A DNA stretch of 64,000 nt from positions 96,001 to 160,000 of IMG/VR virus record IMGVR_UViG_2721755486_000001; one strand, 5' to 3'. Below the pieces are notes generated by a model. That model had not been told where the DNA came from. It made no database searches and worked only from the letters and a program-made list of their open reading frames with translations. Both the position numbers and the translations under genes were made by a program. Positions 35,601 to 60,684 of this stretch are shown here, in pieces. Origin of the DNA: a virus (lineage: Duplodnaviria > Caudoviricetes). Each line of letters starts with the position of its first letter. Position 1 is the stretch's first letter.

Positions 35601-35996
35601 GAGACCCGGGCGGAGGAGCGCGAGTCGATCAAGGCGCGCAGCATCGCCCAGGCGGCGGAGAGCGAGGAGGCATCCCGCCAGCGCCTGGCCAGCGGGGCGA
35701 CCACCGTGGACCTGCGCACGCGCGAGGCGGCGAACGAGCGGGAGGCGTCGACCGTCCAGACGAAGAGCCAGTTCGCGACGGCCCTGCCGGAACTCACGGC
35801 TCACCGTGCCAAGGTACGGGCGGCGCACGAAGCACGGCAGAAGGCCGAGGCCCAGGCGTTGGCGAAGCGCGAGGCGGAGCAGCAGGCCTTGGCCGTGGCG
35901 CAGAAGACGGAGCAGGCGCGCAAGCTGGAGGCCGAACGGGTGCTGCGCTTGCAGCGCGAGCGCGAGGCCGAGGTGTTCTACGGTCGCAGCCGGTAA
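32628..35996 (+). CDS. MOBF relaxase-helicase (TrwC/TraI-like)
   Basis: N-terminal Y..YY, FDMCATAEKTVS, HYTNRLLEPNLHTH; helicase GRAGTGKT, DEAGM, GDHLQLQPV, YAGTVHKSQG. Confidence 0.92.
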   Translation: MLTMMALSPKGHDKNGNNIVNYFLAKEARYYVNELTGKIENQTKWIGKGAEALGLKGEVSEEVLLNLLNGKLPDGAKGVQNIGRPGRRAAFDMCATAEKTVSMLMADPTNTPEEREAIIQAHKRAARAMIKFIESELYARVGAQGNEIVRNVGMIAAEVTHYTNRLLEPNLHTHFIVMNMVHSIGPDGKERVTTFENSTLMAIKHAAGAIYRNQLAHEVQELGYQIDKHIQLNAKGRETGDVFFRVAGVDEFSRDAHSKRRMEILAYMEAHPEVTEDQAAERTRKDKNEPGIVELRQIWKEHFEEVRRKDPNAYQSVAALKDPAVVSNLGHKDLEPVKGQEKQQDMAPKSDDEILKTVHVASSLFTRFELMKQVAFEYVGRLDMRGVIEKTEAILDDVKRVVAFEHDPKTGVARYASQAMIDLEAGIIKKAAARADEQSIRLTKEQVDAGLAKFQAKNPHLKLNAEQEGSVRYICSDTGGNAIISGRAGTGKTTSFIATKITWEEAGGKLIGVSESWKAAKKLQSESGVESYSTRTTLHRIKNGKLPLDSKTMLIVDEAGMQTSQSIAELQNLCDAAGAKLVLMGDHLQLQPVGAGSGFRIMQARVQDHALKEIRRQRQERDRITANMLYDERDGQKIFERYMANGHIRTSETEVEARAMLVKDYFKSEGVAESDTVKLMVSGELREVEMAVRDKVVFSAGDKALGINANDIGVVRAMEMKEAGEGYLIQVEVTPADLNKPKHTVSIDTSVFNEFNRDYAQTLVICGTNREVQQMNEDIRQGFKDRGLLGDDQRVRLIVNDEWRQEIVATGDKVLFTEKHDDLGVSNGEGGIVTQLRPSDDKKSHIMTIRLVSEIPEQNGRYVSFDTKDCPDVMLAYAGTVHKSQGQSIDKTLHYVGPGGVHMVNNQSALVAMTRMKDEYGIYGVDEDLLGRIDEDGTRRGGIAQALTEQALNVTTMDVQRITREEAKEIRPQQRGAARRLEPIKAPPELAETRAEERESIKARSIAQAAESEEASRQRLASGATTVDLRTREAANEREASTVQTKSQFATALPELTAHRAKVRAAHEARQKAEAQALAKREAEQQALAVAQKTEQARKLEAERVLRLQREREAEVFYGRSR

Positions 35997-44793: not shown

Positions 44794-45969
44794 CTACGCG
44801 GACCGGCCCGGCAGGCCCATGCGCTCCCGGAGCTTCTGGGTGAGCGTTTCGATGGCGGCGCGTTCGTCCGTCACCTTGGGCGTCTTGTGCAGCTCGACCC
44901 ACCAGGTGCTGATCTGGTCCTCCGGCACGTCGAACCGGCGCAGCCAAGTCTCGGTGGCCACCACCGTGTTCAGGAGCGGGGAGGTGCTGTCGAGCGTCCC
45001 GTCCTGCAACGTGTCGATCGTGTCGGCCACGATCGGGCGCAGCGCCTGGTTGAGGATCACGTACGCGGGCGGCGGCAGGACCGGCTTGCCCGGACCGTCG
45101 GAGATCCCGGTTTCCGGCGCGGCACCCGCCTGGATGATGAGGCCACCGTCGCCCAAGGGCTCGCGGATGAACCAGTCCGGCGGGAGCGCGAGGGACGACG
45201 CACCGCCGACCTCGCGGACCAGCTCCGCGTCGAGCGCGTTCAGCCAGTCCACCGTCTTGATCTTCGTGTAGAGCTTGCGCACGTTCACACGCGCGGGGTC
45301 GCCCACGTCGACGCCGGGCCCGAAGCGGCGGGCGTAGAAGAACTCGCTGGCCTCGTTCGGGCGGCGGCCCATCGGGGGCACGTTCACCGCAAACCCGGCG
45401 TGACCGTGGACGGTGGGCAGGGCCTCGGCGAAGGCGTTGAACATCGCTTGGAACCGAGCGGGGCGGTGCACGAGGAACGCACGCGGGACGGTGAAGGACA
45501 CCGCATCCAGGCCGCGCTTGCGTTCGGCTTTCCAGTCGCTCAGCGCGAACACGGTGAAATCGTAGAAACCGGTGGCGAGCTTGTGGTCGGCGCTGGTCAT
45601 GGCCACGGCCAGCGTCTGGTTGGCGGGCACCGACGACGCCAGGCGTGCGAATCCCGACGGGTCGTAGGCGGTCGGGTCCTCTCCCTCGGCGTACAGCCAG
45701 CGCAGGGGGCCGGTCTTCGACGGCTCCTGGCCGGCGGCCACTTCGCTGGCGTGGTGGTACTCGTCGATCACCGCGCTGTACTGCTCGAAGCAGCTCACGA
45801 GCGCCTTGCGGACCTCGGGGGTGCACCCGTTGCGGAAATACAGGGCGCCCCGGACCACCAGCGCGGCGCCGGTGATCCCCTTGCGGTGCGGGGGCTCGTA
45901 GAGGCCATAAGGCATCGTGTCCGCGCGGCGCGGATCCTTCGCCCAGGCTTCGATCTGATCGTTTGTCAT
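44794..45969 (-). CDS. DUF3396/TsiV-like T6SS immunity protein
   Basis: HGHAGFAV..RRFGPGVDVG..IKTVDWL..IQAG..P.Y..WLRRF; downstream of a VRR-Nuc effector. Confidence 0.8.
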   Translation of the reverse strand: MTNDQIEAWAKDPRRADTMPYGLYEPPHRKGITGAALVVRGALYFRNGCTPEVRKALVSCFEQYSAVIDEYHHASEVAAGQEPSKTGPLRWLYAEGEDPTAYDPSGFARLASSVPANQTLAVAMTSADHKLATGFYDFTVFALSDWKAERKRGLDAVSFTVPRAFLVHRPARFQAMFNAFAEALPTVHGHAGFAVNVPPMGRRPNEASEFFYARRFGPGVDVGDPARVNVRKLYTKIKTVDWLNALDAELVREVGGASSLALPPDWFIREPLGDGGLIIQAGAAPETGISDGPGKPVLPPPAYVILNQALRPIVADTIDTLQDGTLDSTSPLLNTVVATETWLRRFDVPEDQISTWWVELHKTPKVTDERAAIETLTQKLRERMGLPGRSA

Positions 45970-45978
45970 GGCGTCAAC

Positions 45979-46719
45979 TTACCAGATGGGTGGGGCGGGG
46001 AACGGGGCAGGGCCTGGCGCGACCGGCGGAAGCGGAGGGCCTCCGGGTGCGCTGCTGCCACCACCGTACAGATCTTCGAGGTCCGTCTGCGGCGCGCGTT
46101 GCTTGGACGACGAGGTTTGCTTCTCCCCTTCGTCGTCGCCGCACCCGCACTCGGTGGCCCCGAGGTGGGCAAACTTCGCCGGACTGCCCGCGATTTCCAC
46201 GTAGTCGGCCTCTTGGTCAGGGCCGTACCGGTCCCCGGGGAACTTCATTTCGACGACCGTCTTAATGTTCGATTGTACGGGCGGCTGGGTCGGGTCGTTG
46301 ACGATCACGACGTCTGGGCGTCGCACGTCCCCGGACTGGTACTTGGTGCCCTTGCTGGGCCACACGTCTCGGATCCACTGGCGGATGCTCGAATGCGGCT
46401 CAAGCGGATCGTCATAGTCCATGATCGGAGATGGGGGCTCGGTGGTCATGTCGTACGGCTGCTCCGGGCGGTATTCCGTCGGAGCGCCCGTCTCCATTTT
46501 CGAGACCTCGTTCGCTAGGCCCAGACGCTGTTCGACGCACTTCTGGCGCTGGACGCGTCCGGACTTGGTGGCGACACCGATCTGCCGGCATTTGCAGAAC
46601 GTGCGGCACAGGACCTCGCGGTCCTTCGGCGAGAGGCGGGCAGCGCTGGCCCCGACCTGGGTGGTCTGGCCTTCCGGGCTCATCCCGCCGGACGACGATC
46701 CGGGGGCGTACCCAGTCAT
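45979..46719 (-). CDS. VRR-NUC (TseV-like) PD-(D/E)xK nuclease effector
   Basis: RRPDVVIV..VVEMKFPGD; Cys-rich N-terminus. Confidence 0.8.
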   Translation of the reverse strand: MTGYAPGSSSGGMSPEGQTTQVGASAARLSPKDREVLCRTFCKCRQIGVATKSGRVQRQKCVEQRLGLANEVSKMETGAPTEYRPEQPYDMTTEPPSPIMDYDDPLEPHSSIRQWIRDVWPSKGTKYQSGDVRRPDVVIVNDPTQPPVQSNIKTVVEMKFPGDRYGPDQEADYVEIAGSPAKFAHLGATECGCGDDEGEKQTSSSKQRAPQTDLEDLYGGGSSAPGGPPLPPVAPGPAPFPAPPIW

Positions 46720-47237
46720 GCGTCGGTCCCCGGCTGGTGGAACGACAGGGACGAGGCCTGGTGCCCTTCGAGCCAGTCGGTGAACCCGTTCGCATCGGTC
46801 TTGCCCTGGACCACGCGACCGTCGGACGACGTGACGGTGTACGGGTGATTGGGGAGGGGCTGGCGCGTGGCGTCGTCGACCACCTGGAATCGTCCGCGCT
46901 GGGGCGTGTCCTGGCTGGCTTGCGACAGCACGCTCTTGCCGCCACCGATCGACCCACCGGGACCGCTGGTCGGCTCGGCCGTGGCGGTGCTTTGGCTGGC
47001 GATCAGCGATGCGCCGCAGGCGGTCGTGTCACCTTCAGAGGCAACGGGCCGCCCGTCGAAGGTCATGCCCAGGTTTTTGACGCCGACGATCGGGTAAATG
47101 CCGCCGCACTTCGGGCAGGAGACCTTGTCGCCAAGCAGGGCGAGCGGTCGACCGTCAACCTTGTTTTCCGGCGCGCAGGCGAGAACACGACCGCCGTGCG
47201 AGGTGGTGTCCCCCTCGCGAATGAACGCAAAACCCAT
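46716..47237 (-). CDS. PAAR domain protein
   Basis: GDTTSHGG, GDKVSCPKC, GDTTACGASLI. Confidence 0.9.
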   Translation of the reverse strand: MGFAFIREGDTTSHGGRVLACAPENKVDGRPLALLGDKVSCPKCGGIYPIVGVKNLGMTFDGRPVASEGDTTACGASLIASQSTATAEPTSGPGGSIGGGKSVLSQASQDTPQRGRFQVVDDATRQPLPNHPYTVTSSDGRVVQGKTDANGFTDWLEGHQASSLSFHQPGTDA

Positions 47238-47416
47238 GCCGCATACCTCCCTTCCGTTTGGTCGGAGGAATGTAGCACAGCGGGTTTTCCCGTAACCATC
47301 CTGTCAACGTTGACAGGGCGCGGGGCGGTGTGGGAAGGTCCGGCCAGCAGCGCGAACAGGCCCGTCAGGGCTGCTGCAGCGTGAGGGAGGCCGGCCACAG
47401 CGCCGGCCTTCGTCCG

Positions 47417-48115
47417 TCAGGCGTTGTCGATCGGGTCGTTGAACGTCGGGCTGTCGTTCCCGCCACCGCTGCGATTCACCCCGGGCGTCACCTTGTGCCA
47501 TCGGAAGGCTTCCGACGGCTTCACGGCGTTGTTCGCCAGGTGCACCGCCTCCTCGTAGGTCGTGGCGGGGTCCAGCCACACCTTCGCTTCGTCCAGCGTG
47601 AGGACCAGCGGGCGCCGATCGTGGATGTCGCCCAGCAGGCCCTCGGCGGCGTCGGTGACGATCACGAAACCGTCCACCACGCCCGGTGTGCTGGGCGGAG
47701 GGGCACCTTCGCGTACGCTCGACAGCCCGGCGAAATACGTGGGCGGCCCGTTGGCGGTCTGGATGAACCACGGCTGCTTGTGCCCCGGCTCCCCGGTCCA
47801 CTCGTAGTAGCCGTCGCAGGGGACGAGCACGCGGTGCGCTTTCCACATCCATTTCCACGCAGAGCTGGAGGACTTGTCCAGGCGCGCGTTGATCATCATT
47901 TTCTGCTGGCGCTCGACGGCCCAGGCGGGGCGGTAGCCCCACGTTTGCAGACGTGGACCGTCGGGGGTGATGACCGGTTGCTGGGTGCCGGGCGACACGT
48001 TCCAGCTCGGCCGGAACAGGTCCGCGTGACCGCGCAGGCGCGGGTCGTTCTCGTCGGTGGCGAGGGGCACGACGTAGAAAAGGTCGCCCTGACCGCGGGA
48101 GTAACGACCACACAT
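47417..48115 (-). CDS. SOS response-associated peptidase (SRAP/YedK/HMCES family)
   Basis: MCGRY N-terminus, WNVSP, INAR, GYYEW, IHDRRP. Confidence 0.92.
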   Translation of the reverse strand: MCGRYSRGQGDLFYVVPLATDENDPRLRGHADLFRPSWNVSPGTQQPVITPDGPRLQTWGYRPAWAVERQQKMMINARLDKSSSSAWKWMWKAHRVLVPCDGYYEWTGEPGHKQPWFIQTANGPPTYFAGLSSVREGAPPPSTPGVVDGFVIVTDAAEGLLGDIHDRRPLVLTLDEAKVWLDPATTYEEAVHLANNAVKPSEAFRWHKVTPGVNRSGGGNDSPTFNDPIDNA

Positions 48116-48159
48116 GGATGTCTCCTGGTGGCAAACGGACAGCGTAACCTATACCGGGC

Positions 48160-50088
48160 TTAGGCGGCGGGCTCCGCTGGTGCCACGGGCGCGGCTGGCG
48201 CTTCAGCAGCCGCAGCCGGTGCCGCTGGCTCTGCGGCAGGCACGTCCGCAGGGGCAGCCACGTCAGCGTCGTACTCGGCCAGCCAAGCGTCCAGCTCAAG
48301 GACGCATAGGCATTCGTTGTTGCCGGCGTCTTGCTGCGCGCCCTGCTGCGCGACCCCGGCCACACGGAACAGTTCGTCAACGACGGGACCGCCCGAGTTG
48401 CCTTTACGGATCAACTGATTGATTTCAAAACGCTGTAAGCCCGTGCGTGGAAAACGCGCAGTCACGATCGCGGGTTCAATGTTGGCACGTCGACCGTTGT
48501 TCCAGTTTGGGAAGCCGATGAGGTGGGTCGGCGCATGACGATTGATCGGCGCTTCCATCCCTGAGAAGTGACGATGATCCGGCGGCGCGCCTTCGAACTC
48601 GAGCAGCGCCAGATCCCGATGTGCATGCCGGTGCACGACGCGCAGAGGCCATCGCTGACCCGAGACTGGATCAATCGCGGTCACGTTCAACCCCTGCACG
48701 GCTGCTTCGTTGATGTCCGTCGTGAACGGGATTTCTTGGGCGTTCGGACCGTCCCCCAACTGGTATTCACCTTCGGCCCGGAAAACGTGATCACAAGTGA
48801 TCAGCCGGTTGCGTTGCTTGTATGCGAAAGCGGTGCCCTGACCGCCCACCATGGTGGGTTGCCCAGGGACGGGTGGTTGATAGTCCGCGGCCCACTCCAC
48901 GACAAAGACCGCGCGTTCTGCGTCCTCGACGTTGCGGACGATCGCTTCGACCGGCAGCGTCGATGCGGCGAAGTCCGCGTTGCCGTCGCGCTCCCGAGCC
49001 ACTAGTCGGTTGTATTTCTCGGCCAGACGCGTATAGATCGCGTCCGAGTCCCCACGAACCATCCGAACGTACAGCAGTTTTCCCCAAAGAACGTTTTTCA
49101 GCGCCGGCGTTTGCCCAGTCCGAGTTTGCCGCTTCCACGGACGCTTCTCATACGCGAGGGTAGTGCCGTTGGTTACGCGTTGTTCCCATGCGGCTTGGGC
49201 AGCGGCGTACCCGTACCTGTCCCAAGCGTGCAATGCGCCGCGAATCTTGTCGATGAAAATGCGCTTGACGTTAGCGAACTCGTTGATGACGATGCCGGTG
49301 ACTTCCATGCGACGGCGGCGCGTCGACATTCGCGTCTTGGACGGATTGATCTGGAAGTTGTGCTGGTTGATGATCCCAACCAGTTCTTGGCCGAGCGTGA
49401 CAACGCCGCTGTCGAAGGTGCAGATGTTCGACGGCAGCGCTGCTCGAGTGGGCGCCGAAAAGCTGAACGTGATGTCGTCCGCGTAACGCGTGTAGGTGGC
49501 TCGGTGACGCTTCGCCAAGGCCATCAAATCACGGTCCATCGACCGGCACACCTGGTTCGACAGAAAAGGCGAGGTCGGTGCGCCTTGCGGCAGCTCGTTC
49601 CCGACGACGCACATCTGCGCCAAGACTGTGGCGACCTCGTGGGAATAGTTGAACGGAGGTTTTTTCAGTACACCACGCACGCGGTAAAAGCTGATCGACG
49701 GGAAGAACGCTTCCAGGTCCAGATTCAAAACGAACGTTGGGCGTCGCTCCAGATGCCTGCGTGCGTTGGTGACGATGCTGCGGTCTTTGATGAATGCGTG
49801 CGCGCATGGCTTCGGGGTTCCTGCGCGCTCGTACAAATGCGCAAGCACTTTCTCCTGCAGAACCTTCAGCCGACGACGGGGCTCACGGATCAAGCGAAAA
49901 CCGCCGCTACGTTTCGCCATCAAGAACGCTCTGTACGGCGGATGCGGGTATAGGATTTTCTGGACTTGCTCGTATGGGACGCCAAGGACGCCGGTGGAAA
50001 ACACGTGGACGTCCATGCGCTCCCAAGCGTCCATCAGGTCCTGGTTTTCAACGAGGGCCTGGATCAGGATGGTGTTTGGAGTGTTCAT
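48160..50088 (-). CDS. Retron-type reverse transcriptase fused to a trypsin-like serine protease
   Basis: KRSGGFR, NARRH, LDLEAFFPSI, LPQGAPTSP, YTRYADD, VTG; protease TCDHV, DLALL, GNSGGP. Confidence 0.9.
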   Translation of the reverse strand: MNTPNTILIQALVENQDLMDAWERMDVHVFSTGVLGVPYEQVQKILYPHPPYRAFLMAKRSGGFRLIREPRRRLKVLQEKVLAHLYERAGTPKPCAHAFIKDRSIVTNARRHLERRPTFVLNLDLEAFFPSISFYRVRGVLKKPPFNYSHEVATVLAQMCVVGNELPQGAPTSPFLSNQVCRSMDRDLMALAKRHRATYTRYADDITFSFSAPTRAALPSNICTFDSGVVTLGQELVGIINQHNFQINPSKTRMSTRRRRMEVTGIVINEFANVKRIFIDKIRGALHAWDRYGYAAAQAAWEQRVTNGTTLAYEKRPWKRQTRTGQTPALKNVLWGKLLYVRMVRGDSDAIYTRLAEKYNRLVARERDGNADFAASTLPVEAIVRNVEDAERAVFVVEWAADYQPPVPGQPTMVGGQGTAFAYKQRNRLITCDHVFRAEGEYQLGDGPNAQEIPFTTDINEAAVQGLNVTAIDPVSGQRWPLRVVHRHAHRDLALLEFEGAPPDHRHFSGMEAPINRHAPTHLIGFPNWNNGRRANIEPAIVTARFPRTGLQRFEINQLIRKGNSGGPVVDELFRVAGVAQQGAQQDAGNNECLCVLELDAWLAEYDADVAAPADVPAAEPAAPAAAAEAPAAPVAPAEPAA

Positions 50089-50099
50089 GGAAGGACAAG

Positions 50100-50231
50100 G
50101 CCGCCCCGGGGAGCTTTCTCCTGTACCTGCTGCGCGCAATCACGGACAGTCCGGATGCCCAGCGGATCGGGGATACCATGCTGCAAACGTCTGCGTTAAC
50201 GCGAACGAGATTAAGTGGTGCCCGGAGCGGC
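50100..50231 (-). ncRNA. Predicted retron msr-msd RNA
   Basis: Terminal inverted repeats GCCGCTCCGGG (50221-50231) and CCCGGGGCGGC (50100-50110); long imperfect hairpin ~50117-50176; ends 11 nt before the RT ATG. Confidence 0.7.
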
Positions 50232-50236
50232 AAACG

Positions 50237-50266
50237 ATTTTAAGGTCTGATGTTACGCCGCCGCAA
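50237..50266 (-). promoter_or_regulatory. Sigma70-like promoter for the retron transcript
   Basis: TTGCGG-18-TAAAAT ending 5 nt before the first inverted repeat. Confidence 0.55.
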
Positions 50267-50273
50267 TGGGCTC

Positions 50274-50657
50274 TCATTCTCGGTGTTGCTCTTTTTTGAG
50301 CAGGGACGCCAGATGGTGTGCCGATTTAAGGACGATCGCACGTTGGGCCGGGGCCAGTCCGTTCAACGAGGCGATGAGGGTGCGGGCTTCATCGGTGGGG
50401 TGCACGGACGCGGAGGTGAGGATCTCCTCGATCGGCACGTCGAGCACGTCGCAAAACATCACCAGCCGTTCGATGGACATGGCGACCTTGCCACTTTCGA
50501 GGCGCGAGACGCTCTCCTTTTCCAGGCCGAGTTTGTCGGCGAGGACAGCCTGGGTCCAGCCGCGGGCTCGGCGCACAGCAGCGAGGCGCTGACCAATCTC
50601 CTGGACCATTTCCTTGGCACTTCGCTCTACCGCCTTTCCCACAACCAGAATCTCCAA
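50274..50657 (-). CDS. XRE-family HTH regulator
   Basis: IGQRLAAVRRARGWTQAVLADKLGLEKESVSRLESG; true start may be slightly downstream. Confidence 0.85.
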   Translation of the reverse strand: MEILVVGKAVERSAKEMVQEIGQRLAAVRRARGWTQAVLADKLGLEKESVSRLESGKVAMSIERLVMFCDVLDVPIEEILTSASVHPTDEARTLIASLNGLAPAQRAIVLKSAHHLASLLKKEQHRE

Positions 50658-50830
50658 AGCACGTCATTTGATGACGTGAAGTGTGGCGTCTGGCTGTGCG
50701 TTTGTAGATGCTGCAAAGTGCATCTGATGACGCAATGTGCATTTTAAGCGCGTTTTTGCCGAAAAAAAGCGTGCATAAACCCGTACCTCCACACCCGGCG
50801 CGGGGCGGCGGGGTGGTGGCGGTTCAAGCG

Positions 50831-51703
50831 CTAGGCAGCGGGGTCTTGATTCACGCGAGCGGCGCGCTCGCGGGCCAGCTGCTCCGGGGACTTGTCCGCG
50901 GCGATCGTTCCGGTGGGCGGCTCGATGGTGTAGTCCCCCCGCACCAGACGAGGAGCAGGTGCCGTGGCACGGGTAGAGACGGTGGGTTTGGCGGGCGTCG
51001 ACGTGCTCGATGCAGGCGCTGGCGGTGGCCCTGATCGGTCGATCGCGTCCAGTTCGCGTTGGCGCTCTGCAGCGGCGGCGACGTATGCTGGGGATTTCAT
51101 GGCCCGATCGTCGAGGACGCCCTTGGCGACGAAGGCGAGGATGAAACCCAGAATCGCGCCCCCGAACAGACCGCCCATGAACGTGGCGCCGGGGAAGCAC
51201 GCGATCACGAACCAGACCGTGACGCACGACCATCCGTAGACGGACCAGAATGAAGGGAAGCACTTCGCCAGGCGGGGCCCGTAGCGCTGCTCCACGGCGA
51301 TCCTCAACCCGGCCTTCCGTTGCTCCTCGTCGCGGGCCCGCTTCTCGGCTTCCCGGTGCTGCCGGGCTTGTTCCTGGTAGGCCGCCTGTTGGCGCTCCTG
51401 CTCGACACGGGAGAACTCGTTCCGGGCGAGGTCGCCGGCGGCGCGCTTGATCGCGTTGATCGCCAGCTCACGCGAGCACCGGAACCATTCCTTTCCCTCG
51501 CGGTGCTTGCGCAGGCGCAGGTGGCCCTCCCGTTCGACCGCTCGTGCGTCGGGCACGTGCGTCGAGTATTCGACCACCACAGGATGGGGCGAATGGGTCC
51601 CGTTGAGCTGCGCCGCGCGTTCCTCGGGCGTCCCGGTGGTGAAGCCGACCTTGACCAGGCCGGGCATCGCCTTGTTCGACATCACATAGACGTAACCTTC
51701 CAC
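50831..51703 (-). CDS. T5orf172/GIY-YIG-like domain membrane protein
   Basis: GYVYVMSN..PGLVKVGFT..R..L..EWF; two TM segments; GTG start after GGAGG. Confidence 0.75.
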   Translation of the reverse strand: MEGYVYVMSNKAMPGLVKVGFTTGTPEERAAQLNGTHSPHPVVVEYSTHVPDARAVEREGHLRLRKHREGKEWFRCSRELAINAIKRAAGDLARNEFSRVEQERQQAAYQEQARQHREAEKRARDEEQRKAGLRIAVEQRYGPRLAKCFPSFWSVYGWSCVTVWFVIACFPGATFMGGLFGGAILGFILAFVAKGVLDDRAMKSPAYVAAAAERQRELDAIDRSGPPPAPASSTSTPAKPTVSTRATAPAPRLVRGDYTIEPPTGTIAADKSPEQLARERAARVNQDPAA

Positions 51704-51726
51704 GGTTCCCTCCGCTGGGGACGTGT

Positions 51727-52731
51727 TCAATGCAGGTTGTCGGCGGCCTGCCAGATGGTGGCGAGCTGGGCGTGGCCATGCGCTTTGGCCTGGGCGGCAG
51801 CGGCGAGCGCGGAGTGCAGCGGGGGCAGCACAGCGTTGTAGGCGGCGACGGCACGCGCGAGGCCCTTGCACGGGCCCATGTCCGGGATCACGTCCCCGAC
51901 CTTCACGGTGCTCCCGTCCAGGCAGGTCCCTCGCCACTGGGCGATGCGGGCGTTCAGGGCGTTCTCCGCCGACGCTGCATCGGCCTGCACCCGGTCGATC
52001 GAATCGTCGGCGATCGAGATCTGCGACTTGTCGACGCCCATCTGTCCGACGATCACGCCGGCCTGGCCCTGCGCGACACCGTTGCCGGTGGCTTCGAGGC
52101 GCTGGGCGCGATCGAGCTTGGCCTGCTCGGCGGTCACGGCGTGCTCGTAGTAGGCCTGGGCCCGGGGCAGGCGTTCGAGGTGCTGGTGGGCGCTCGCGAC
52201 GAACTGGTTCAGGCTGTCCGTGAGGGCGTTCACCTGGCGGTTGAGCTGCTCGACCCGCTGGCCCCGTTGGCGTGCGGCGATGATCGGCTGGCCGGCCTGG
52301 TTGAGCTGGGCCACCTCCTGGTCGAAATCGGAGGGCTGACCTTTGGCGAAGTGCTCGACACCGGTCTGGGCACCGTTGGCCACCGTGAGGTCGATCCCGT
52401 CGCCGGTGACCGACCCGCTGAAGTTCTGCCCGATGGGCAGGGGCGTTTCCAGGACGGTGAGGGTGATGCTGTTCCCGTCGACCGATCCCGACACGTTGGC
52501 GCTGCTCGACGTCAGGGTGCCGTCGTTCTTCAGCCCGGCGTGGCGGAGCGTACCGGTGAAACGATGGTCGGGCGTTTCGGTGATTTGCAGGAGGTCCGCC
52601 TGGTTGCCGAAGTGGGCCACGTAGGACCCCGAGACGGAGCGGTCACCGCACCCGGCGAGGAGCAGGGTGCTCCCCACGATCGCCGTCACGCACGTCGCCA
52701 GGCCCCGGCCTTTGCGCTGTTGGTCCTTCAT
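51727..52731 (-). CDS. Lipoprotein, hypothetical
   Basis: Lipobox LLLAGC after MKDQQRK. Confidence 0.7.
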   Translation of the reverse strand: MKDQQRKGRGLATCVTAIVGSTLLLAGCGDRSVSGSYVAHFGNQADLLQITETPDHRFTGTLRHAGLKNDGTLTSSSANVSGSVDGNSITLTVLETPLPIGQNFSGSVTGDGIDLTVANGAQTGVEHFAKGQPSDFDQEVAQLNQAGQPIIAARQRGQRVEQLNRQVNALTDSLNQFVASAHQHLERLPRAQAYYEHAVTAEQAKLDRAQRLEATGNGVAQGQAGVIVGQMGVDKSQISIADDSIDRVQADAASAENALNARIAQWRGTCLDGSTVKVGDVIPDMGPCKGLARAVAAYNAVLPPLHSALAAAAQAKAHGHAQLATIWQAADNLH

Positions 52732-52882
52732 CCCCGCCCCCGATCTCGATTGGTCCCACCGTATTGTGTGAACAGTATAGCGACAGCGTGCGGCACCCGG
52801 ACGGGGCGAGCGGGGTGGACCTGCCTTGATGCGCAGATACCGATGAACCATCAGCGTGTGTTGCACAGGTCCGGGCCACGGG

Positions 52883-53404
52883 TCAGTGGGTGCGGAAGGT
52901 GTTCCAGGTGTCTGTGTCGAGGTGCATCGAGGCCATCACCTCGAAGAGGTACAGCTCAAGGTCGTTGTCGATCTGAATGTATGCGATCGACATTTCCCGC
53001 AGCCGGCCCTGGGCGGTGAGGAAGACCTCGCGAAACTGCTCGTCCTTCATCGCCTGGTCCCGCTTCATTTCGTGCGGGAAGTCCATGCTCGCCATTTTGT
53101 AGACCAGGCTGGCGGCCGAGTGGGTCTCGAAGTTCAGGTGTTGCAGCAGGCGTTTGATGACCCCACGCGAGATTCCCACGTAAACGGGGCGGTCCTCGTC
53201 GAGGAACACATAGCAGCCGGGGAAGTCGGTGCTTCGGTCGATGGTCTCGCCGATCACCGACAGCGCGCTCTTGGCCGTTGTGTACCCGACGAAGGTGTTG
53301 GCTGGAATGGGCGATTGGAGGGCGGCCTTAAGCCGTTCCAGGTGAGCGGGCAGCACGGTGGCGGCCAGCTCGTCGAAAGTGTGGGTGCAGTTGTCGATCG
53401 GCAT
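52883..53404 (-). CDS. GIY-YIG nuclease family protein
   Basis: PGCYVF..VYVGIS..RLLQH..E..N. Confidence 0.75.
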   Translation of the reverse strand: MPIDNCTHTFDELAATVLPAHLERLKAALQSPIPANTFVGYTTAKSALSVIGETIDRSTDFPGCYVFLDEDRPVYVGISRGVIKRLLQHLNFETHSAASLVYKMASMDFPHEMKRDQAMKDEQFREVFLTAQGRLREMSIAYIQIDNDLELYLFEVMASMHLDTDTWNTFRTH

Positions 53405-53447
53405 GCGGGGATCAGCGGGGTGGAGGGGAGAGACGCCGATCATACCC

Positions 53448-53651
53448 GGGCATACGGGGCATACATGGGCTCGAGCCCACCGTGCGCGGAGGAGCCCCTC
53501 TAAAGTATGCCCAAGAGGCTGGGCATACTCGACGGAACCGGCTCCCGATCGGGGCAAAACCCGGCCAGCAGGGCGTTCCGGGATGCCGCCAATAGCCCGC
53601 ACCAATCTGTATGCCCGGTGTATCAGGATATTCTATTTTGGCTGGGCATAC
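53448..53651. repeat. Six GGGCATAC/GTATGCCC octamers near the island right end
   Basis: 53448, 53457, 53521, 53644 (+); 53505, 53609 (inverted). Confidence 0.7.
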
Positions 53652-53678
53652 AGCCTGAAACGACCGTCCTACAAGGGC

Positions 53679-53789
53679 TCAGTGTTTTACACCCCGATAA
53701 TGCTGCATCATCGGCGTATGGCTGTCCTTGGACGGTTTCTTGACTGCTTGATCCACGTTGGCTTTTTCCTGCTTTTCCTTGTCTGGCAT
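53679..53789 (-). pseudogene. mutS: mutS 5' replacement fragment across an att-like core
   Basis: MPDKEKQEKANVDQAVKKPSKDSHTPMMQHYRGVKH*; HTPMMQ matches the MutS N-terminal HTPMMQQY motif; divergent from the integrase. Confidence 0.7.
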
Positions 53790-53875
53790 GGCTTTCGGCG
53801 GGGTTCGGTGGGCTTCTTGCGCGATCTACATATACCGTCCGCACCCGTCCTCACGCCAATGCACTCGCGCCTTCA

Positions 53876-53965
53876 GCGTAGCTTTTTGGCGAACGGTCCT
53901 AGGAAACCTACGCTGCGTGCGTGTGTCCCACTTCCAGGAAAACCTACGCCGAGAAAACCTACGCC
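53876..53965. repeat. Integrase arm-type sites AAACCTACGC
   Basis: 53904, 53940, 53955 direct; GCGTAGCTTT inverted variant at 53876. Confidence 0.6.
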
Positions 53966-55291
53966 ATGCAATTCGATGCCCGAGCTGCGAAGCTGCTGCA
54001 ACCAGGCGAACACCTGGTGATCGCCGATTGTCCAGGCCTCCGGTTGGAGGTCAGTGCCACGCGCCGTAGCTGGATCTACCGCTACAAGTCTCCGGTCGAC
54101 GGGCGTATGCGCCAATCCAAGATCGGCGCCTGGCCAGCCATGTCACCGGCGGCGGCTATCGTCGAATGGGAGCGGCTTCGGGCCGCCCGCGATGGTGGCG
54201 CAGATCCCGCTGCAGAGAAGCGCGCGGCACGCACCGCAGCTCAAGGCAAAACAGCCGATAGTTTACCGCACGCCGCTGACTACACCGTCCGTCGGCTGTG
54301 CGACGACTACCTGTCCGGATACATCGAGCGCCGGCGGAAGAGGAAGGGGGCGGACGAGGTCGGGCGTATGTTCAACAAGATGCTCGGTGGTCTAGGGAGC
54401 GTTCGCGCAGACAGTATTACTCGTGCCCAGGCATTTGACTTCCTGGATGGCTTCGCGAGCATTCCTGTGCAGGCCGCCAAGCTTCGTGCCGAGCTCGGCG
54501 CCGCTTGGGACTATGCGTTGGACGCGGGCCGGCTGTCGGATACCGTGCCTAACTGGTGGCGGCAGGTGATGAGGGGGCGACTGCGGAGCAAGGGCAAGCG
54601 CATTGAGGGCAAGTCTGTGGGCACTGCCAAGCGCGTGCTGACGCCCAAGGAGGTCGGCGAATTGGTCCGGTGGATGCCCAACTTCAGTCGGGTGGTGGCG
54701 GATGCGCTGACGCTCTACCTTTGGACCGGCTGCCGCGGTTCGGAAATCGTATCGATGGAGGTACGTGAGCTTAGCGAGGAGCCCGATGGGCTCTGGTGGA
54801 CTATCCCGAAGATGAAGACAAAAAACTCACATCGGGACGCTGCTACAGATTTGCGCGTACCGCTGATTGGCCGTGCGGAGCAGATCGTGCGTCGTCGCAG
54901 GGATATTGCTGTGAATGGCTACTTGTTCCCAGTGCGGCAGACTGGCGATAGGGCGACGGTTGGCCATATTGAACAGAAAACGATTCAAACCGCTGTTCAT
55001 TACCATCAGCCCTATTCGAAGACCAAGCCGAAGTCGAAGAGGCCGAGGCTGACCATCACGCATTGGGCTCCGCATGATCTACGGCGAACCCTACGGACTA
55101 CCTTGACGGCGCAGGGTTGCCCAACCGATGTGGCCGAGGCAATCATTGGGCATATGCAGCCTGGTGTGCAGGGTGTCTACAACCTTCACGCCTACGACCA
55201 CGAGCGACATGCTTGGCTCAAGCGTATCTCAGCATATTGGGAAGCGCAGGCGGCTCACGGAGGTGAATTTTTGCTGGCGGTTGCTCCATGA
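53966..55291 (+). CDS. int: Tyrosine integrase with arm-binding domain
   Basis: GLRLEV..SWIYRY..IGAWP; TGCRGSE, HDLRR, IIGH, YN. Confidence 0.92.
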   Translation: MQFDARAAKLLQPGEHLVIADCPGLRLEVSATRRSWIYRYKSPVDGRMRQSKIGAWPAMSPAAAIVEWERLRAARDGGADPAAEKRAARTAAQGKTADSLPHAADYTVRRLCDDYLSGYIERRRKRKGADEVGRMFNKMLGGLGSVRADSITRAQAFDFLDGFASIPVQAAKLRAELGAAWDYALDAGRLSDTVPNWWRQVMRGRLRSKGKRIEGKSVGTAKRVLTPKEVGELVRWMPNFSRVVADALTLYLWTGCRGSEIVSMEVRELSEEPDGLWWTIPKMKTKNSHRDAATDLRVPLIGRAEQIVRRRRDIAVNGYLFPVRQTGDRATVGHIEQKTIQTAVHYHQPYSKTKPKSKRPRLTITHWAPHDLRRTLRTTLTAQGCPTDVAEAIIGHMQPGVQGVYNLHAYDHERHAWLKRISAYWEAQAAHGGEFLLAVAP

Positions 55292-55556
55292 GTGCTTCAG
55301 GGTTAAATGGCTTGTTGCGAACCCGCTGAACACTTCCTGTCATATGCAATCTCTCGACACGTATCAGGAGATCGTTGAAAATGTTCAGTCATTTGGATTC
55401 TTGGGGGCGCTAAGTACTAACCAGGCTGCGCGCTGGTCACGGTGCGTGTCTTCATCACGTTGTCATGTGCGGTGGGTATGGCATCTGGCAGTCGAGGGAT
55501 GAATGGTGGCGAGACATTAGTGCAAGATCTTTCGAAATCTTAATCTGCGAGTGTGC

Positions 55557-56657
55557 ATGCGAATTAATTATTTGACGGTTAATGGGCTTTTTGGGAAGCC
55601 TGGTGTCATTACCTATTGGTTTAATCCGGATTTGAATATTCTGACTGGACGAAATGGGGCGGGGAAAACAACGATCATAAAATTGGCTTGGGCTTTAATT
55701 AGCGGCAATATATTGCTCGCCCTTCGGGAGGTGAATTTTAAGTCGTGTACTGTTGGTACGGATGAATATACTTGCACTGTCATTCGAACGGGGTCCGTGC
55801 ATTGCAGGATTGAGTTGGAGATCGATGGGGAAAGTCATGTTCTAGAGGACGACGATGAGGAGCCTGACGGTTATTGTGAATATGCTGAGGATAAGGCTCA
55901 ATCACGTATGGTCGGTAGGGGGGGGTCCATTTTCTTCCCTACATTCCGTCGGATCGAAGGTGGATTCTCTATAGCGCCTGCCTCTTCGAATCGACCTCGA
56001 GGTGGCACGAAATCAGTTGGTGAGTTGGAGGAGTCGCTGGTGTCGGTTTCTCGCAAGCTCTCGAATGAAAAGCATTCATTCATTGCTGCATTGTCCAGTC
56101 AGGACATCGTGAGTTTGCTCTTGAAAAGGTACACGGCCTTATCCGAGGAAATAAACGCTTTTCAGGGGGACGTGACCAAAAGCGTTATTGAAAAAATTCG
56201 CCAATACGAGAAAACACAAAACAATCGACAGGATGCGGATGCTCTCCTCTCAGAAACTCGAGCGGAAATTGAGAAAATAGAGGAGTTTAGTTCGCGTACG
56301 CTGACTCCTCTTAATGGGGTTCGAGATCTCGTGGAGAGATTGTTTCAGCACTCTGGCATATCCTTTGGAACTCGATTGAGCTTTGGTGATGCCGCCGCCG
56401 CAGTGACAAGCGATGCATTATCGGCGGGTGAAAAGCAAATGCTCAGCTTCATTTGCTATAACGCATTTCATAAGAACTCCATTATATTTATTGATGAGCC
56501 GGAGCTTAGTCTGCATGTCGATTGGCAGAGAAGGCTTTATTCGATTCTTGAGTCGCAAGAATCGGGCAATCAGTTCATTTTCGCAACACACTCTCCCTTT
56601 ATTTACGCAAAATACCCAGATAAAGAGGTTAGCGTTGGTATCGATAGGGGGGAGTAA
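55557..56657 (+). CDS. ABC/AAA_21 ATPase (PARIS AriA-like)
   Basis: GRNGAGKT, LSAGEKQ, IDEPELSLH, ATHSP; low GC. Confidence 0.8.
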   Translation: MRINYLTVNGLFGKPGVITYWFNPDLNILTGRNGAGKTTIIKLAWALISGNILLALREVNFKSCTVGTDEYTCTVIRTGSVHCRIELEIDGESHVLEDDDEEPDGYCEYAEDKAQSRMVGRGGSIFFPTFRRIEGGFSIAPASSNRPRGGTKSVGELEESLVSVSRKLSNEKHSFIAALSSQDIVSLLLKRYTALSEEINAFQGDVTKSVIEKIRQYEKTQNNRQDADALLSETRAEIEKIEEFSSRTLTPLNGVRDLVERLFQHSGISFGTRLSFGDAAAAVTSDALSAGEKQMLSFICYNAFHKNSIIFIDEPELSLHVDWQRRLYSILESQESGNQFIFATHSPFIYAKYPDKEVSVGIDRGE

Positions 56658-56658
56658 T

Positions 56659-57429
56659 ATGAGTTCCGAAAAGGCGCGCCCAACGGTGGATGAGATCTAT
56701 GAGATCCTTAGGCGGACATCCCTTCCAACGGTCTTGGTGGAGGGGAAGGATGACATTATTTTTTACCGTTCTGTTGAGCATGAGTTACGTGATTTAGATG
56801 TTGATATGTTCCCGGCTGGTAATAAGGATGCTGTGCTTGAGCTTAGGAGGAGAATAAAAGAGAATCCCATATCGGCTCCGGTCGTTTTTGTTGTTGATAA
56901 TGATCTTTGGGTGTATTCGATTGCGGGGCGGCCGAGTGGCATAGAGGACCTTATTACTACAACGGGATATTCAATAGAGAACGATCTATTTATTGATGGC
57001 GATCTCGAGAGTTTTCTACGTCCCGATGAGGTGTCTGGATTTAAATCTGAATTAAAGCTGTTCTTGCGGTGGTATGCGCTTTCAATTAATAGAAATATTA
57101 ATGGGTTGCCGTCAAGTTTTCGCACGCATGCGGGCAAAGTTTTGGACGACAAGGCTTTCTATGAGGCGGAAATGACCCTGCAAGAGGGGGAGGTCTATCC
57201 GGAAGCGTTGCTCGAAGAAATTCAATCCAACTATGGCACCCTGCTGAGAGGGAAGTCACTGTTTGCTTTGCTCCTTCGCCAATTATCGGGAAAGAAGCGA
57301 GATGTGAAGTTTGGAGGTAAGCAATTGATGGAGATTGGGGCGTCTAGAAAGGGCTCTCATTTTCGGAGAATTCAGATCTCGGTGAGGAAATCTGTGGAGC
57401 AAGCCTTGGGTACTCTGCCGGTTTCGTAG
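56659..57429 (+). CDS. DUF4435/TOPRIM-like protein (PARIS AriB-like)
   Basis: VLVEGKDD, VVDND, YSIEN, RGK; 1 nt after the ATPase stop. Confidence 0.75.
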   Translation: MSSEKARPTVDEIYEILRRTSLPTVLVEGKDDIIFYRSVEHELRDLDVDMFPAGNKDAVLELRRRIKENPISAPVVFVVDNDLWVYSIAGRPSGIEDLITTTGYSIENDLFIDGDLESFLRPDEVSGFKSELKLFLRWYALSINRNINGLPSSFRTHAGKVLDDKAFYEAEMTLQEGEVYPEALLEEIQSNYGTLLRGKSLFALLLRQLSGKKRDVKFGGKQLMEIGASRKGSHFRRIQISVRKSVEQALGTLPVS

Positions 57430-58524: not shown

Positions 58525-60684
58525 TCACACCTCCTCGGTAGCAGGTTCGGCCAGCAGCTCATCCAACGCTTTACCACTGGCCAGCGCGGTTTCTATCCAG
58601 GCCGGGCGCTTACCGCGCCCGCTCCAGGTGTTGCCGGCCTGGTCGCGGTACCGCACAGGGCGAAGCCGCGCCACCGGCTCGGTCGGAGGTGGGCTCGATT
58701 CTTCGGTGGCGTCTTCGGTCGAGGCGGTGGAGGGCTCCTGGTCTGGGAGCGCGGCAGCCGATGCGCCCGGGCCGCGGAGGATCGCCGGTAGCCAGCGGCG
58801 GCCGACCAGGCGCTCTTCGGCGGCGCCGATCTGCGTTTCCTTCTTCAAGCCGGCGATCGCGTCGGCGGCCTCCTGGCCGGCGGCCTCGCGCACCGCCTCG
58901 AGGCGGCGCGCCTTCGGTACGCTGGCCAGGTATGAACCTGCGGTCGGTGCCCACCAGTCGGCCATGTCCAGGTCGACTGCTGCGGCGAGACGGTGCGCCT
59001 TCGCGTGGCCGTGGGCGTCCTCGCGTTGCTCGACCGTATTGATGCTGTGGGCGACGCAGACGGCCAGGAGGTCGATCTTGTCGACGTGGCTCAGTTCCAG
59101 CAACCAGGGGAAGAGTTGATCGCGATCACGCGGCAGCCGCTCCTCCCACGCGCCGATCAGCTCGTCCATGCGCGTCCAGGCGGCGCACCCCTCTAGGTCG
59201 GGCGCCATGCCTTGCCCACAAGTACGAATGTTGGTCAGGGAAACCTTGGCCACTGAGTCGTAGCGCGCGAGATCGTCGACGGCGTCGAAAAGGGGAGGGA
59301 CCAGCGCATAGAGCAGTTCGGCCAAGGCGACGCACGGGTTGTCGGCGACCAGGGCCTGCAAGGCTGAAGTGCGATGGGCTGTCAGCTGCGTGACCAGGCG
59401 TTCGGACAGAGGGCGCAAGGCTTCCGGCTCGCCCTCGCCTGGCGCGGCAGTGGTTGCCCTACCGGCGTCGCCGGGGTCCGCGTCGCTGGGCTCGGCCGCT
59501 GTGGTGCTCTTGGCCTTCTTCTTGTTCTGCTCGGGCCTGATCAGGCCTCGGTGGATCGACAGTTCGCCCGTCATGTCGATTCGAACGATCACGCCGGCTT
59601 TGGCCTTCTGCCGGTCGGTGAAGATCTCGCGTCGCGCTTCCACCTCCTCAATGCGCGCCTCGACGCTGCCGAGTTCGGTCGACAGCGCTTCGTCCTCGAT
59701 GTCGAGCGCTTGGATCTTCTCGTCCAGCACCTTGGCTTGCGCCTGCAGCTCACCGAGTTCCGCCTGCTCCTCGTCCGTCAGGTCGCGCTTCTTCGGCTGG
59801 CTTTTGCCGAAGAGGGTCATGTCATGGAGGCTGATGCTCTCGTTGGCCTCGACCCAGCTCCAGCCCTCCTCGCGCACGCGCTCCGCAACACCTTCAAGTT
59901 TCTCCAGGGCCAAGCGTTTCAGGAGCGAGCCATCGCCGATGTACCCTCCGCCATCGCTGAACAGGTCACGGAGGACGGGACCTCCGGCCTCCTCGTAGGC
60001 ATCGAGGCCAACGAAGCGGGCAAGGCGGTCCGTCTTCGCATTGATGGCGCCTGGCTTGGCGATTGCCGCACGCAGCATGTCGGGGCGCGTCTGCCATTCA
60101 CCTTGGCTCTTGGCGCGCTTCCACACCTGTTCCTGCCAGGCGTGGTCGTCCGTGATAGCCAGCGCCATCAGTTGATCCAGGTTCAGCTCGCCATCGCGGT
60201 AGCCCTGCACCAGGCGCGGGGAGACGTTGGCTAGCTTGAGGCGGCGTTGCACAGTTAGCGGCGTCGCGCCGAAGCGTGCGGCGATTTCCTCGATCGAGCT
60301 GCCGCTATCGATCATGCGCTTGAAGGCATCGAACTCGTCGGCCGGGTGCATCGCCTCATGCATGTTGGCGGCTACGCTGATCTCCTCCGCCTGGTCGGGG
60401 TCGGCCACCATGCAGAGGAACTCGAAGGACTCTGGCAGCTCCCCGGTGCCGATCCTCAGGTGCGCACCCTCCAGGCGAGTGCCGCCGTCGATCACCTCGA
60501 AGGCGGGGGCGTTCTTCTTGCGGCTGACGTGCGGGATGATGGTCAGGTTCTCAATCTGACCATGGGCGACCAGGGAGGCGCCTATCTCACGCACGCGCTT
60601 GCGTGGCCGGTTGCGTTGGTTGCGCGGCGAGATGATCAGGTCGAGTGCGCGGATGTGAAGCAGGTCGCCAGGTTTGTGGCTCAT
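58525..60684 (-). CDS. ParB/Spo0J-family protein with C-terminal H-NS-like DNA-binding domain
   Basis: NQR..EVIDGGTRL..MHPADE..HTH; C-terminal YRDQAGNTWSGRGKRPAWI. Confidence 0.8.
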   Translation of the reverse strand: MSHKPGDLLHIRALDLIISPRNQRNRPRKRVREIGASLVAHGQIENLTIIPHVSRKKNAPAFEVIDGGTRLEGAHLRIGTGELPESFEFLCMVADPDQAEEISVAANMHEAMHPADEFDAFKRMIDSGSSIEEIAARFGATPLTVQRRLKLANVSPRLVQGYRDGELNLDQLMALAITDDHAWQEQVWKRAKSQGEWQTRPDMLRAAIAKPGAINAKTDRLARFVGLDAYEEAGGPVLRDLFSDGGGYIGDGSLLKRLALEKLEGVAERVREEGWSWVEANESISLHDMTLFGKSQPKKRDLTDEEQAELGELQAQAKVLDEKIQALDIEDEALSTELGSVEARIEEVEARREIFTDRQKAKAGVIVRIDMTGELSIHRGLIRPEQNKKKAKSTTAAEPSDADPGDAGRATTAAPGEGEPEALRPLSERLVTQLTAHRTSALQALVADNPCVALAELLYALVPPLFDAVDDLARYDSVAKVSLTNIRTCGQGMAPDLEGCAAWTRMDELIGAWEERLPRDRDQLFPWLLELSHVDKIDLLAVCVAHSINTVEQREDAHGHAKAHRLAAAVDLDMADWWAPTAGSYLASVPKARRLEAVREAAGQEAADAIAGLKKETQIGAAEERLVGRRWLPAILRGPGASAAALPDQEPSTASTEDATEESSPPPTEPVARLRPVRYRDQAGNTWSGRGKRPAWIETALASGKALDELLAEPATEEV

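Follow-up and report, generated by a model that had tools for sequence, protein, structure and literature searches.

A reverse transcriptase-serine protease gene and its covarying upstream RNA very probably form an intact type XI retron

A gene encoding a reverse transcriptase (RT) fused to a serine protease, together with a non-coding RNA (ncRNA) encoded just upstream from it, very probably forms an intact, self-contained retron of type XI. The locus is located on the minus strand, between positions 48160 and 50266 of a 64,000-nucleotide (nt) stretch of DNA (referred to as the window) that corresponds to positions 96,001 to 160,000 of IMG/VR virus record IMGVR_UViG_2721755486_000001 (Duplodnaviria; Caudoviricetes). 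Computational analyses revealed the identity of the protein, the intactness of its two active sites, the structure of the upstream RNA, the strict linkage of this RNA to RT-protease genes, a predicted promoter, and the lack of a conserved partner gene. The class is known, and the locus adds an ordinary new member to it. As a whole, it is in all likelihood best explained by an intact type XI retron comprising an ncRNA, a promoter, and a protease that would be gated by multicopy single-stranded DNA (msDNA); the gating itself, which is proposed by analogy, is about as likely as not.

Reverse transcriptase-protease gene

The gene and the regions of the encoded protein are as follows (pLDDT, predicted local distance difference test).

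48160..50088, minus strand: RT-protease gene, 642 codons plus stop, full length in comparison to 21 homologues
49288..49914, minus strand: reverse transcriptase domain, residues 59-267 (Pfam RVT_1, 6.6e-20)
48904..49206, minus strand: conserved helical region between the RT and the protease, residues about 295-395, with many invariant residues (e.g., RMVRG, 342-346)
48352..48837, minus strand: trypsin-like serine protease domain, residues 418-579 (Pfam Trypsin_2, 3.8e-14), with His434, Asp492 and Ser565
48163..48252, minus strand: Ala/Pro-rich C-terminal tail, residues 613-642, with a pLDDT of <50, variable or absent in homologues

The surrounding open reading frame (ORF) extends from 48160 to 50139 on the minus strand. 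The start of the RT was set at the ATG at 50088 because close relatives begin with MNTP, MNIP, or MTTP at this position. Comparison of the 642-residue protein with the PADLOC profiles identified RT-Protease_XI as the top match (5.8e-168, 558 bits), with an alignment spanning residues 34-604 and covering both domains. Two other retron profiles, RT-TIR_XII (1.6e-106, 355 bits, residues 34-372) and RT-Toprim_I-C (1.9e-86, 289 bits), aligned to the first 364-372 residues only. None of the NCBIfam models scored above its own cutoff (256.6 bits for retron_Ec67_fus, with a cutoff of 450, and 308.6 bits for Retron_TIR, with a cutoff of 600). A search of the PDB by sequence identified retron Eco2 (Ec67) as the nearest solved protein (7.2e-40, residues 51-293). 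Eco2 was also the nearest solved fold (Foldseek E of 3e-22, ~380 aligned columns) when an AlphaFold2 model of the protein (mean pLDDT of 83.7) was used as the query. Together, the PADLOC scores and the nearest structure place the RT among retrons, and more precisely in type XI, settling whether it might belong outside retrons, a point that an initial annotation of this DNA had raised. The class name given in that annotation was the right one, since type XI designates RTs fused to a trypsin-like protease, which belong to clade 8 together with types I-C and XII (Mestre 2020, PMC7736814).

The RT domain contains the motifs NARRH (residues 108-112), YADD (202-205), and VTG (263-265). The protease domain contains the motifs TCDHV (His434, codon 48789-48787), RDLALL (Asp492, 48615-48613), and GNSGGP (Ser565, 48396-48394). 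The NAxxH, YADD, and VTG signatures and the trypsin-like domain with a full triad (TCDHV, DLALL, and GNSGGP) were thus found at the places given in the initial annotation. In an alignment of 22 protein sequences (50-95% identity), residues N108, A109, H112, Y202-D205, V263-G265, His434, Asp492, and Ser565 were all invariant. The intact motifs and the full-length alignment indicate that the gene is full length and that both active sites are intact. The same alignment revealed that Phe55, the counterpart of F46 of Eco2, is conserved in at least 90% of the sequences. In Eco2, F46 stacks on the template base and is required for msDNA synthesis and defence (PMC12405507).

The fold of the protease domain resembled those of MarP (Rv3671c) and of DegS/HtrA/DegP (Foldseek E of about 1e-11); no protease of the PDB passed an E of 0.01 by sequence for this domain. 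A PDZ domain was absent among the Pfam matches at E <= 0.01, and no membrane anchor was predicted.

Upstream RNA and promoter

The RNA is encoded on the minus strand between the stop codon of a helix-turn-helix (HTH) gene (50274) and the start of the RT. Its elements, and those of the predicted promoter, are listed in the order of transcription. R1 designates the covariance model built on the 23 loci described below.

50261..50266, minus strand: -35-like hexamer TTGCGG, 18 nt upstream of the -10 box
50237..50242, minus strand: -10 box TAAAAT, 5 nt before a1
50100..50231, minus strand: predicted msr-msd ncRNA, from a1 to a2, 132 nt (R1, 118.5 bits, E 6e-26, full length)
50221..50231, minus strand: a1 arm GCCGCTCCGGG, which pairs with a2
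50211..50215, minus strand: CTTAA motif in the single-stranded linker 3' of a1 (TT in 26/26 alignment rows, A in 25/26, A in 26/26)
50188..50207, minus strand: msr stem-loop CGTTCGCG-TTAA-CGCAGACG, 7 pairs, a palindrome
50168..50187, minus strand: segment TTTGCAGCATGGTATCCCCG, conserved in the 23-locus MAFFT alignment
50127..50167, minus strand: variable 41-nt segment, not conserved in sequence among loci, presumed body of the msd template
50114..50126, minus strand: purine-rich GTACAGGAGAAAG, 3 nt (CTC) before a2, conserved in the 23-locus alignment, presumed template start
50100..50110, minus strand: a2 arm CCCGGGGCGGC, with 11 nt between its end and the RT start codon

The helix formed by a1 (50231-50221) and a2 (50110-50100) comprises 11 pairs, including one G-U, and encloses 110 nt, as the initial annotation had claimed. 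This helix had a score of 31, which was not reached by any of 100 shuffles of the same 201 nt (mean of 18.0, maximum of 27). The linker between a1 and the stem-loop is CACCACTTAATCT. The short msr-like stem-loop that had been named by GCGTTAACGC corresponds to the palindrome at 50188-50207 and covaries in the 23 loci. The purine-rich element was found by pattern in 27 of 38 upstream regions. An Rfam scan of positions 46000-54000 at E <= 1 returned two chance-level matches to animal RNAs only and no retron family. No Shine-Dalgarno sequence was visible before the RT start in the subgroup of the window.

Evidence for the RNA was obtained from relatives of the RT-protease gene. Of 8000 candidates scored in the protein search, 2953 were relatives at E <= 1e-20, and 119 of the best 120 contained both Pfam domains. 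When metagenome contigs were scanned for the pattern of the 22-sequence alignment, 599 stretches matched, 438 of which encode a relative; the best 80 were kept (L009-L088). The genome collection provided an additional locus from Paraburkholderia sp. GAS42 (L001), whose RT is 73% identical. Upstream regions of the RT-protease genes contained a helix of 9-14 pairs with a constant spacing of 100-119 nt and with differing sequences, as exemplified by the arm pairs ACCGCCTCGGG/CCCGAGGCGGT, GCCGTCCTGGC/GCCAGGACGGC, TGCTGCTCTGGTTG/CGACCGGAGCAGCA, and GAAGGGGCGAG/TTCGCCCCTTC. Directly before the 3' arm, GTAnnGGnGAAAG was conserved.

Covariation was analyzed in 23 distinct loci aligned by MAFFT, with no structure fitting. 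RNAalifold predicted 19 pairs, including 15 with compensatory changes. In a 20-pair structure, 94.2% of the cells were paired, versus 31-50% when the partners were slid by 1-3 columns. Double-sided changes were observed for 16 of the 20 pairs, and none of 500 shuffles reached any of the five measures. Such changes affected all nine pairs of the a1/a2 core (95.7% of cells paired) and five of the seven pairs of the msr stem (98.7% of cells paired), the other two pairs of this stem never varying. An extra CC/GG pairing was invariant and therefore uninformative either way. A 3-bp pairing of CUU with the AAG of GAAAG (GUU/AAC in L051 and ACU/AGU in L034) was rejected as too short to tell from chance. 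The inverted repeats, whose conservation in homologs had been proposed as a check, are therefore kept as a covarying helix.

The covariance model R1, of the kind that the initial annotation had called for, matched RT-protease loci: the window, L001, and all 25 loci L009-L033 were detected at E <= 3e-14, 23 of these being its own seeds. The independent matches were L030 and L033, which are cut at contig ends, and L094, from an isolate genome; L023 and L024 are non-seeds but identical to seed L022. All RT-protease loci with an identity of 42% or more had an R1 match upstream. There was no second match within the window, and a scan of the whole 7.95-Mb host genome gave a single match, at the retron locus. 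Among 401 genomes of the same order, 23 matched the type XI profile at E <= 1e-60, and the protease part was also matched only in G000 and G088. When R1 was run on the 23 clade 8 RT loci of this order, it matched the locus of G088 (L094, E of 2.9e-25), which encodes the sole full-length RT-protease, and none of the 22 RT-only loci. Thus, the RNA travels with RT-protease genes and nothing else.

Comparison of the loci anchored on a1 also revealed promoter-like boxes. A TAnnnT hexamer, mostly TACAAT, was present at one offset in 22 of the 23 loci, and TTG was present 16-18 nt upstream of this -10 box in 17 of the 23. The independent locus L094 displays TTGTAG-17-TACAAT. A generic promoter and terminator scan found no promoter site, the boxes emerging from the a1-anchored comparison only. 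From the positions of TTGCGG and TAAAAT in the window, transcription is predicted to begin at, or close to, the first base of a1. The element is a conserved sigma-70-type promoter as judged from its boxes, and the TAAAAT -10 box placing the start near a1 in the initial annotation was both correct and conserved.

Seven more divergent RT-protease loci (30-37% identity) were inspected: L034, L051, L074, L081, L083, L089 (Pseudoalteromonas sp. Bsw20308 plasmid), and L090 (Pseudomonas luteola plasmid). Their a1 and a2 sequences are quite different, and the order of elements is the same: a1 is followed, after a few nt, by TTAA[C/T], then come a stem-loop and a variable stretch, and GTAnAAGAGAAAA, a form related to the purine-rich element of the window, precedes a2. 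The helices beat all 100 shuffles in five of the seven cases. Plasmid loci of Haematobacter (L091) and Bacillus arachidis (L092) were left unassigned; they have good a1/a2-type helices, and their TTAA and GAGAAA motifs differ in form.

The RT-Toprim loci L050, L052, and L079 gave weak R1 matches (E of 0.03-0.04) located just upstream of the RT, with the same layout in the alignment. A Toprim-like YTEGKTD motif is present in ORFs of L050 and L052. The R1-type RNA at these loci (L050, 841-985; L052, 99-256; L079, 1450-1600) consists of a1, TGAATTAAT, a GTG-TAAA-CGC hairpin, and then a2. At an Ec67-family locus of an Escherichia coli plasmid, a1 is followed by G and then by ATTTG, and GTAAGAG, another form related to the purine-rich element, precedes a2. 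The ncRNA of Eco2 itself is composed, in this order, of a 5' repeat, a short single strand, one stem-loop, a 9-nt single strand, an 11-nt RNA-DNA duplex region, the template, and a 3' repeat (PMC12405507). Together, the RT-Toprim matches and the shared layouts suggest that the RNAs of types XI and I-C, which appear from these sequences to be homologous, are related and have diverged.

Proposed mechanism, genomic setting, and alternatives

In the proposed mechanism, the sigma-70-type promoter would start the transcript at a1, and the first 132 nt of this transcript would fold into a retron ncRNA, with read-through into the RT-protease gene being probable. In this ncRNA, the a1/a2 helix would enclose a single-stranded linker with the invariant CUUAA, a single short msr stem-loop, and then a conserved unpaired block, followed by the variable template and its conserved purine-rich start. 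By analogy with Eco2, the RT domain would reverse transcribe the stretch delimited by a2 and the conserved block, yielding an msDNA of roughly 55-70 nt, the template extending from about 50111-50114 back to about 50178. In this comparison, TTTGCAGCATGGTATCCCCG would match, by position, the ssRb element of Eco2 plus the RNA strand of its terminal RNA-DNA duplex (PMC12405507). The complex formed by the RT and the msDNA would keep the fused serine protease, which is HtrA/MarP-like, in an inactive state. Cleavage, modification, or binding of the msDNA by a phage product would free the protease, which would then cleave cell or phage proteins, thereby aborting infection. In Eco2, the nuclease is caged in an msDNA scaffold, and phage DenB starts the decay of the msDNA (PMC12916289). 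It is from such comparisons that we infer msDNA synthesis at the locus, gating of the protease by the msDNA, and an anti-phage role.

Several results weigh against this interpretation. The variable segment was no more stable than shuffled sequences, with a mean z of -0.13 over the 23 loci, 4 of the 23 below -1, and none below -2; in the window, the fold is imperfect (z of -0.31), and the long msd-like hairpin of the initial annotation had no support beyond chance. Folded as a single sequence, the leader was likewise no better than its shuffles (z of -0.12). From a1 to the msr hairpin, no column had a G in more than 12 of the 26 rows, and no conserved branching G was visible. Two short contigs from RNA libraries, at 49946-50192 and 49996-50143, derive from close relatives and are no proof of transcription or of RNA ends; the other contigs of the four RNA-library runs cover the HTH gene only. 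With its filters off, R1 detected L083, L090, and L074 at the correct places among 14 divergent or outgroup loci, with E of 0.3-1.2 and among many chance matches. The divergent loci being below significance for R1, the shared layout there rests on the inspection of motifs and helices. Finally, the literature searched contained no functional test of a type XI retron and no demonstration of phage defence by any of them.

The folding energy of the leader is uninformative in this GC-rich DNA. As both the leader and the msd segment are at the level of shuffles, the support for the RNA comes from the comparison with relatives and not from thermodynamics, and a classical long msd stem is not evident. 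A long, stable msd hairpin is usual in retrons, not defining. Clean stems of 8-13 pairs are present in the variable segment of L013, L017, L019, and L029.

Priming deserves separate consideration. Known retrons prime from a G. The linker contains no G at all in 8 of the 26 rows, the window included. Close to the a1/a2 helix, no letters are invariant other than those of CUUAA (5' side) and GAAAG (3' side). A priming G base-paired at the inner end of a1 is possible. In Eco2, priming occurs from G15, directly after the repeat (PMC12405507), and the branching nucleotide is most often a G preceded by TTA according to Khan et al. Because the linker is devoid of G in these members and only CUUAA and GAAAG are invariant, the canonical type XI ncRNA might depart from the retron priming rule and start synthesis from an adenosine 2'-OH or from a G paired inside a1, with the msDNA caging the HtrA-like protease as in Eco2; we consider this version unlikely. 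In such an msDNA, both ends would be conserved (the 5' end being the complement of GGAGAAAG), and the hypervariable, weakly structured middle would sense the phage, a picture that is doubtful to the same extent.

The retron is flanked by the following genes.

29927-35996, plus strand: type IV coupling protein (TrwB/TraG domains) and 1122-residue TrwC relaxase-helicase
44794-47237, minus strand: PAAR (4.6e-22), VRR-NUC (4.1e-16), and TsiV immunity (1.6e-85) genes in a row, just downstream of the SRAP gene
47417..48115, minus strand: SRAP (YedK-like) gene, downstream neighbour, not part of the core (Pfam SRAP, 1.4e-43)
50274..50657, minus strand: XRE-type HTH gene, upstream neighbour, not part of the core (Pfam HTH_31, 4.6e-13; PADLOC HTH_VI, 4.4e-11, and capH, 3.7e-7)
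50831-51937, minus strand: T5orf172/MUG113 protein located between the retron and the integrase, with a match to PDC-S57, a candidate defence model (1.6e-23)
52883-53605, minus strand: weak GIY-YIG-like ORF, between the retron and the integrase
53921-55291: tyrosine integrase
55551-57429, plus strand: AAA ATPase (AriA, 5e-26; Pfam AAA_21/AAA_15) overlapping a DUF4435 protein (AriB, 5.1e-11)
58525-60684, minus strand: 719-residue protein with an H-NS DNA-binding domain at its C-terminus (2.8e-13) and a weak match to ParB-HTH

The two immediate neighbours raise the possibility of a three-gene unit, in which the retron promoter would be under the control of the XRE repressor, or this repressor would be cleaved by the protease, as in CapH/CapP-type systems, and the SRAP protein would act on the msDNA. 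SRAP proteins bind damaged single-stranded DNA. The SRAP gene lies on the strand of the RT gene, begins 44 nt beyond the RT stop, and has its own AGGAGA ribosome-binding site; the HTH protein matches both HTH_VI and capH. The order HTH, ncRNA, RT-protease, SRAP is repeated in L018 (SRAP at 4523-5236), where the RT, HTH, and SRAP proteins are 53%, 48%, and 66% identical, respectively, to those of the window; this recurrence may reflect either a backbone common to both islands or a functional tie to the single-stranded msDNA. However, the HTH gene was found elsewhere only in L018 and in L009, the latter representing the same island (91% RT identity, the contig ending inside the RT), and the SRAP gene only in L018. 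Analyses of the flanks by tblastn and all-against-all tblastx revealed no conserved neighbours beyond close relatives and L018, and the neighbours at the four named plasmid loci are unrelated to those of the window. A transcriptome contig of run X18, from another organism, encodes an HTH protein gene ~93% alike (30 of 427 letters differ) and runs into unrelated sequence from the HTH stop codon on, suggesting that the HTH gene exists without the retron. These observations make a three-gene unit quite improbable. The break in the X18 contig falls at the HTH stop (50274), as if the retron module had been inserted right there.

The self-contained retron also has to be weighed against a protease that is not the effector and would serve instead for self-processing (removal of the tail or separation of the RT from the protease) or for maturation of the complex, defence arising from another activity. 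HtrA-family and MarP-type proteases perform regulated or self-directed cleavage. The resemblance of the fold to these proteases and the disordered C-terminal tail (pLDDT of <50), which varies among homologues, would fit such a role. Yet no other effector gene is conserved beside the RT-protease gene, the triad is invariant over 50-95% identity, and the sister types fuse their effectors at the same position (Toprim in Eco2 and TIR in type XII). A non-effector protease is similarly improbable.

The proposal of the initial annotation that the retron was spread by a mobilizable island was only partly borne out. The relaxase, the coupling protein, the integrase, a drop in GC content from about 0.67 to 0.50-0.61 across 48-58 kb, and the lack of retron DNA in all 77 other species representatives of the genus (best match, a partial RT match of 66%) speak for this proposal, which is plausible. 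A location of the retron on the accessory DNA of a conjugative or mobilizable island fits these data. The coupling protein, relaxase, and integrase suggest an integrative conjugative or mobilizable element carrying the retron as cargo. No tRNA gene was found in the window. The AriA/AriB-like pair, directly after the integrase and in the lowest-GC part of the window (0.50-0.57), looks PARIS-like. The PAAR, VRR-NUC, and TsiV set corresponds to a type VI secretion nuclease effector and its immunity protein. The 719-residue protein with an H-NS domain may be a silencer encoded by the island.

The retron might accordingly serve the island, for example as an addiction or exclusion module penalizing the loss of the island or the entry of competitors, with phage defence being secondary or absent. 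Its location between the relaxase/coupling-protein pair and the integrase, among other cargo, would be compatible with this role, as would its sporadic distribution (full-length RT-protease in 2 of the 401 genomes of the order, and the retron DNA in none of the 77 other species representatives of the genus) and the occurrence of near-identical DNA in public runs bearing several organism and habitat labels. However, neighbouring genes match the defence models AriA, AriB, and PDC-S57, the usual anti-phage setting, and the retrons studied to date are anti-phage systems, making a module serving the island still more improbable. It is extremely improbable that the upstream RNA does no more than regulate the RT-protease mRNA in cis, as its leader, and is never reverse transcribed: the end of a2 lies 11 nt before a start codon with no visible Shine-Dalgarno sequence in the subgroup, the variable segment has no stable hairpin, and there is no conserved G for priming, but the RNA matches that of Eco2 element for element (terminal inverted repeats, a single short stem-loop flanked on both sides by single strands, and a run of purines preceding the 3' repeat; PMC12405507), homologous RNA is present at the RT-Toprim loci L050, L052, and L079, and type XI ncRNAs have been validated according to Khan et al.

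Relation to known retrons and proteases

Type XI retrons were described as "lacking recognizable ncRNA modules" (Mestre 2020, PMC7736814). Toro 2026 again identifies no ncRNA for type XI, with candidates only for two protease-less lineages. Table S1 of Khan et al. contains three type XI retrons, Mestre-1122, -1143, and -1163, tested for RT-DNA, and some of the validated ncRNAs of that study are from type XI. The consensus obtained here is backed by covariation and fills the gap stated in Mestre 2020 and Toro 2026. It combines the promoter with the a1/a2 helix, a single msr hairpin, and a variable template enclosed by two conserved single-stranded blocks. This consensus allows canonical type XI retrons to be annotated as complete units, provides the exact nucleotides to mutate, and displays the likely kinship of the type XI and type I-C RNAs. 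Two questions become testable in a compact, one-protein system: which substrates are cut by a protease fused to a retron RT, and whether a guanosine is always required for priming.

The protein does not differ from those of type XI as defined in Mestre 2020, since it is likewise encoded by one ORF combining a clade 8 retron RT and a C-terminal trypsin-like protease, with no conserved accessory gene; the difference lies in the ncRNA, which is defined and covarying here and was unrecognized there. The HtrA, DegS, and DegP proteases and MarP display the same protease fold, with the His/Asp/Ser triad in the usual order and motifs. The HtrA family has one or more PDZ domains after the protease, whereas the protein of the window has no PDZ domain or predicted anchor and is fused to an RT.

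The protease-less lineages of Toro 2026 have related RTs and covariation-based ncRNA candidates upstream of the RT, with a1/a2 and two or three stem-loops, a likeness drawn here from the description only. Unlike the window, these lineages encode separate WYL or DnaB_C proteins and no protease, and no ncRNA is given there for the canonical, protease-fused type. Type XII retrons (RT-TIR) have the RT and the helical module in common with the window, with a TIR domain there and the protease here at the C-terminus.

Eco2/Ec67 (type I-C1, RT-Toprim; PDB 9lm3 and 9i2f) belongs to the same RT clade, is also a single fusion protein, and has an N-terminal module of ~370 residues in common with the protein of the window, including the template-stacking aromatic residue F46, which is kept here as Phe55. 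The elements of the ncRNA are in the same order, and the msDNA expected here would be of similar length. In Eco2, a G directly follows the 5' repeat and the msd is a long hairpin, in contrast to the lack of a conserved G and the weak hairpin observed here. The effector of Eco2 is a Toprim RNase, whereas the protein of the window carries a C-terminal Trypsin_2 serine protease in place of the Toprim domain.

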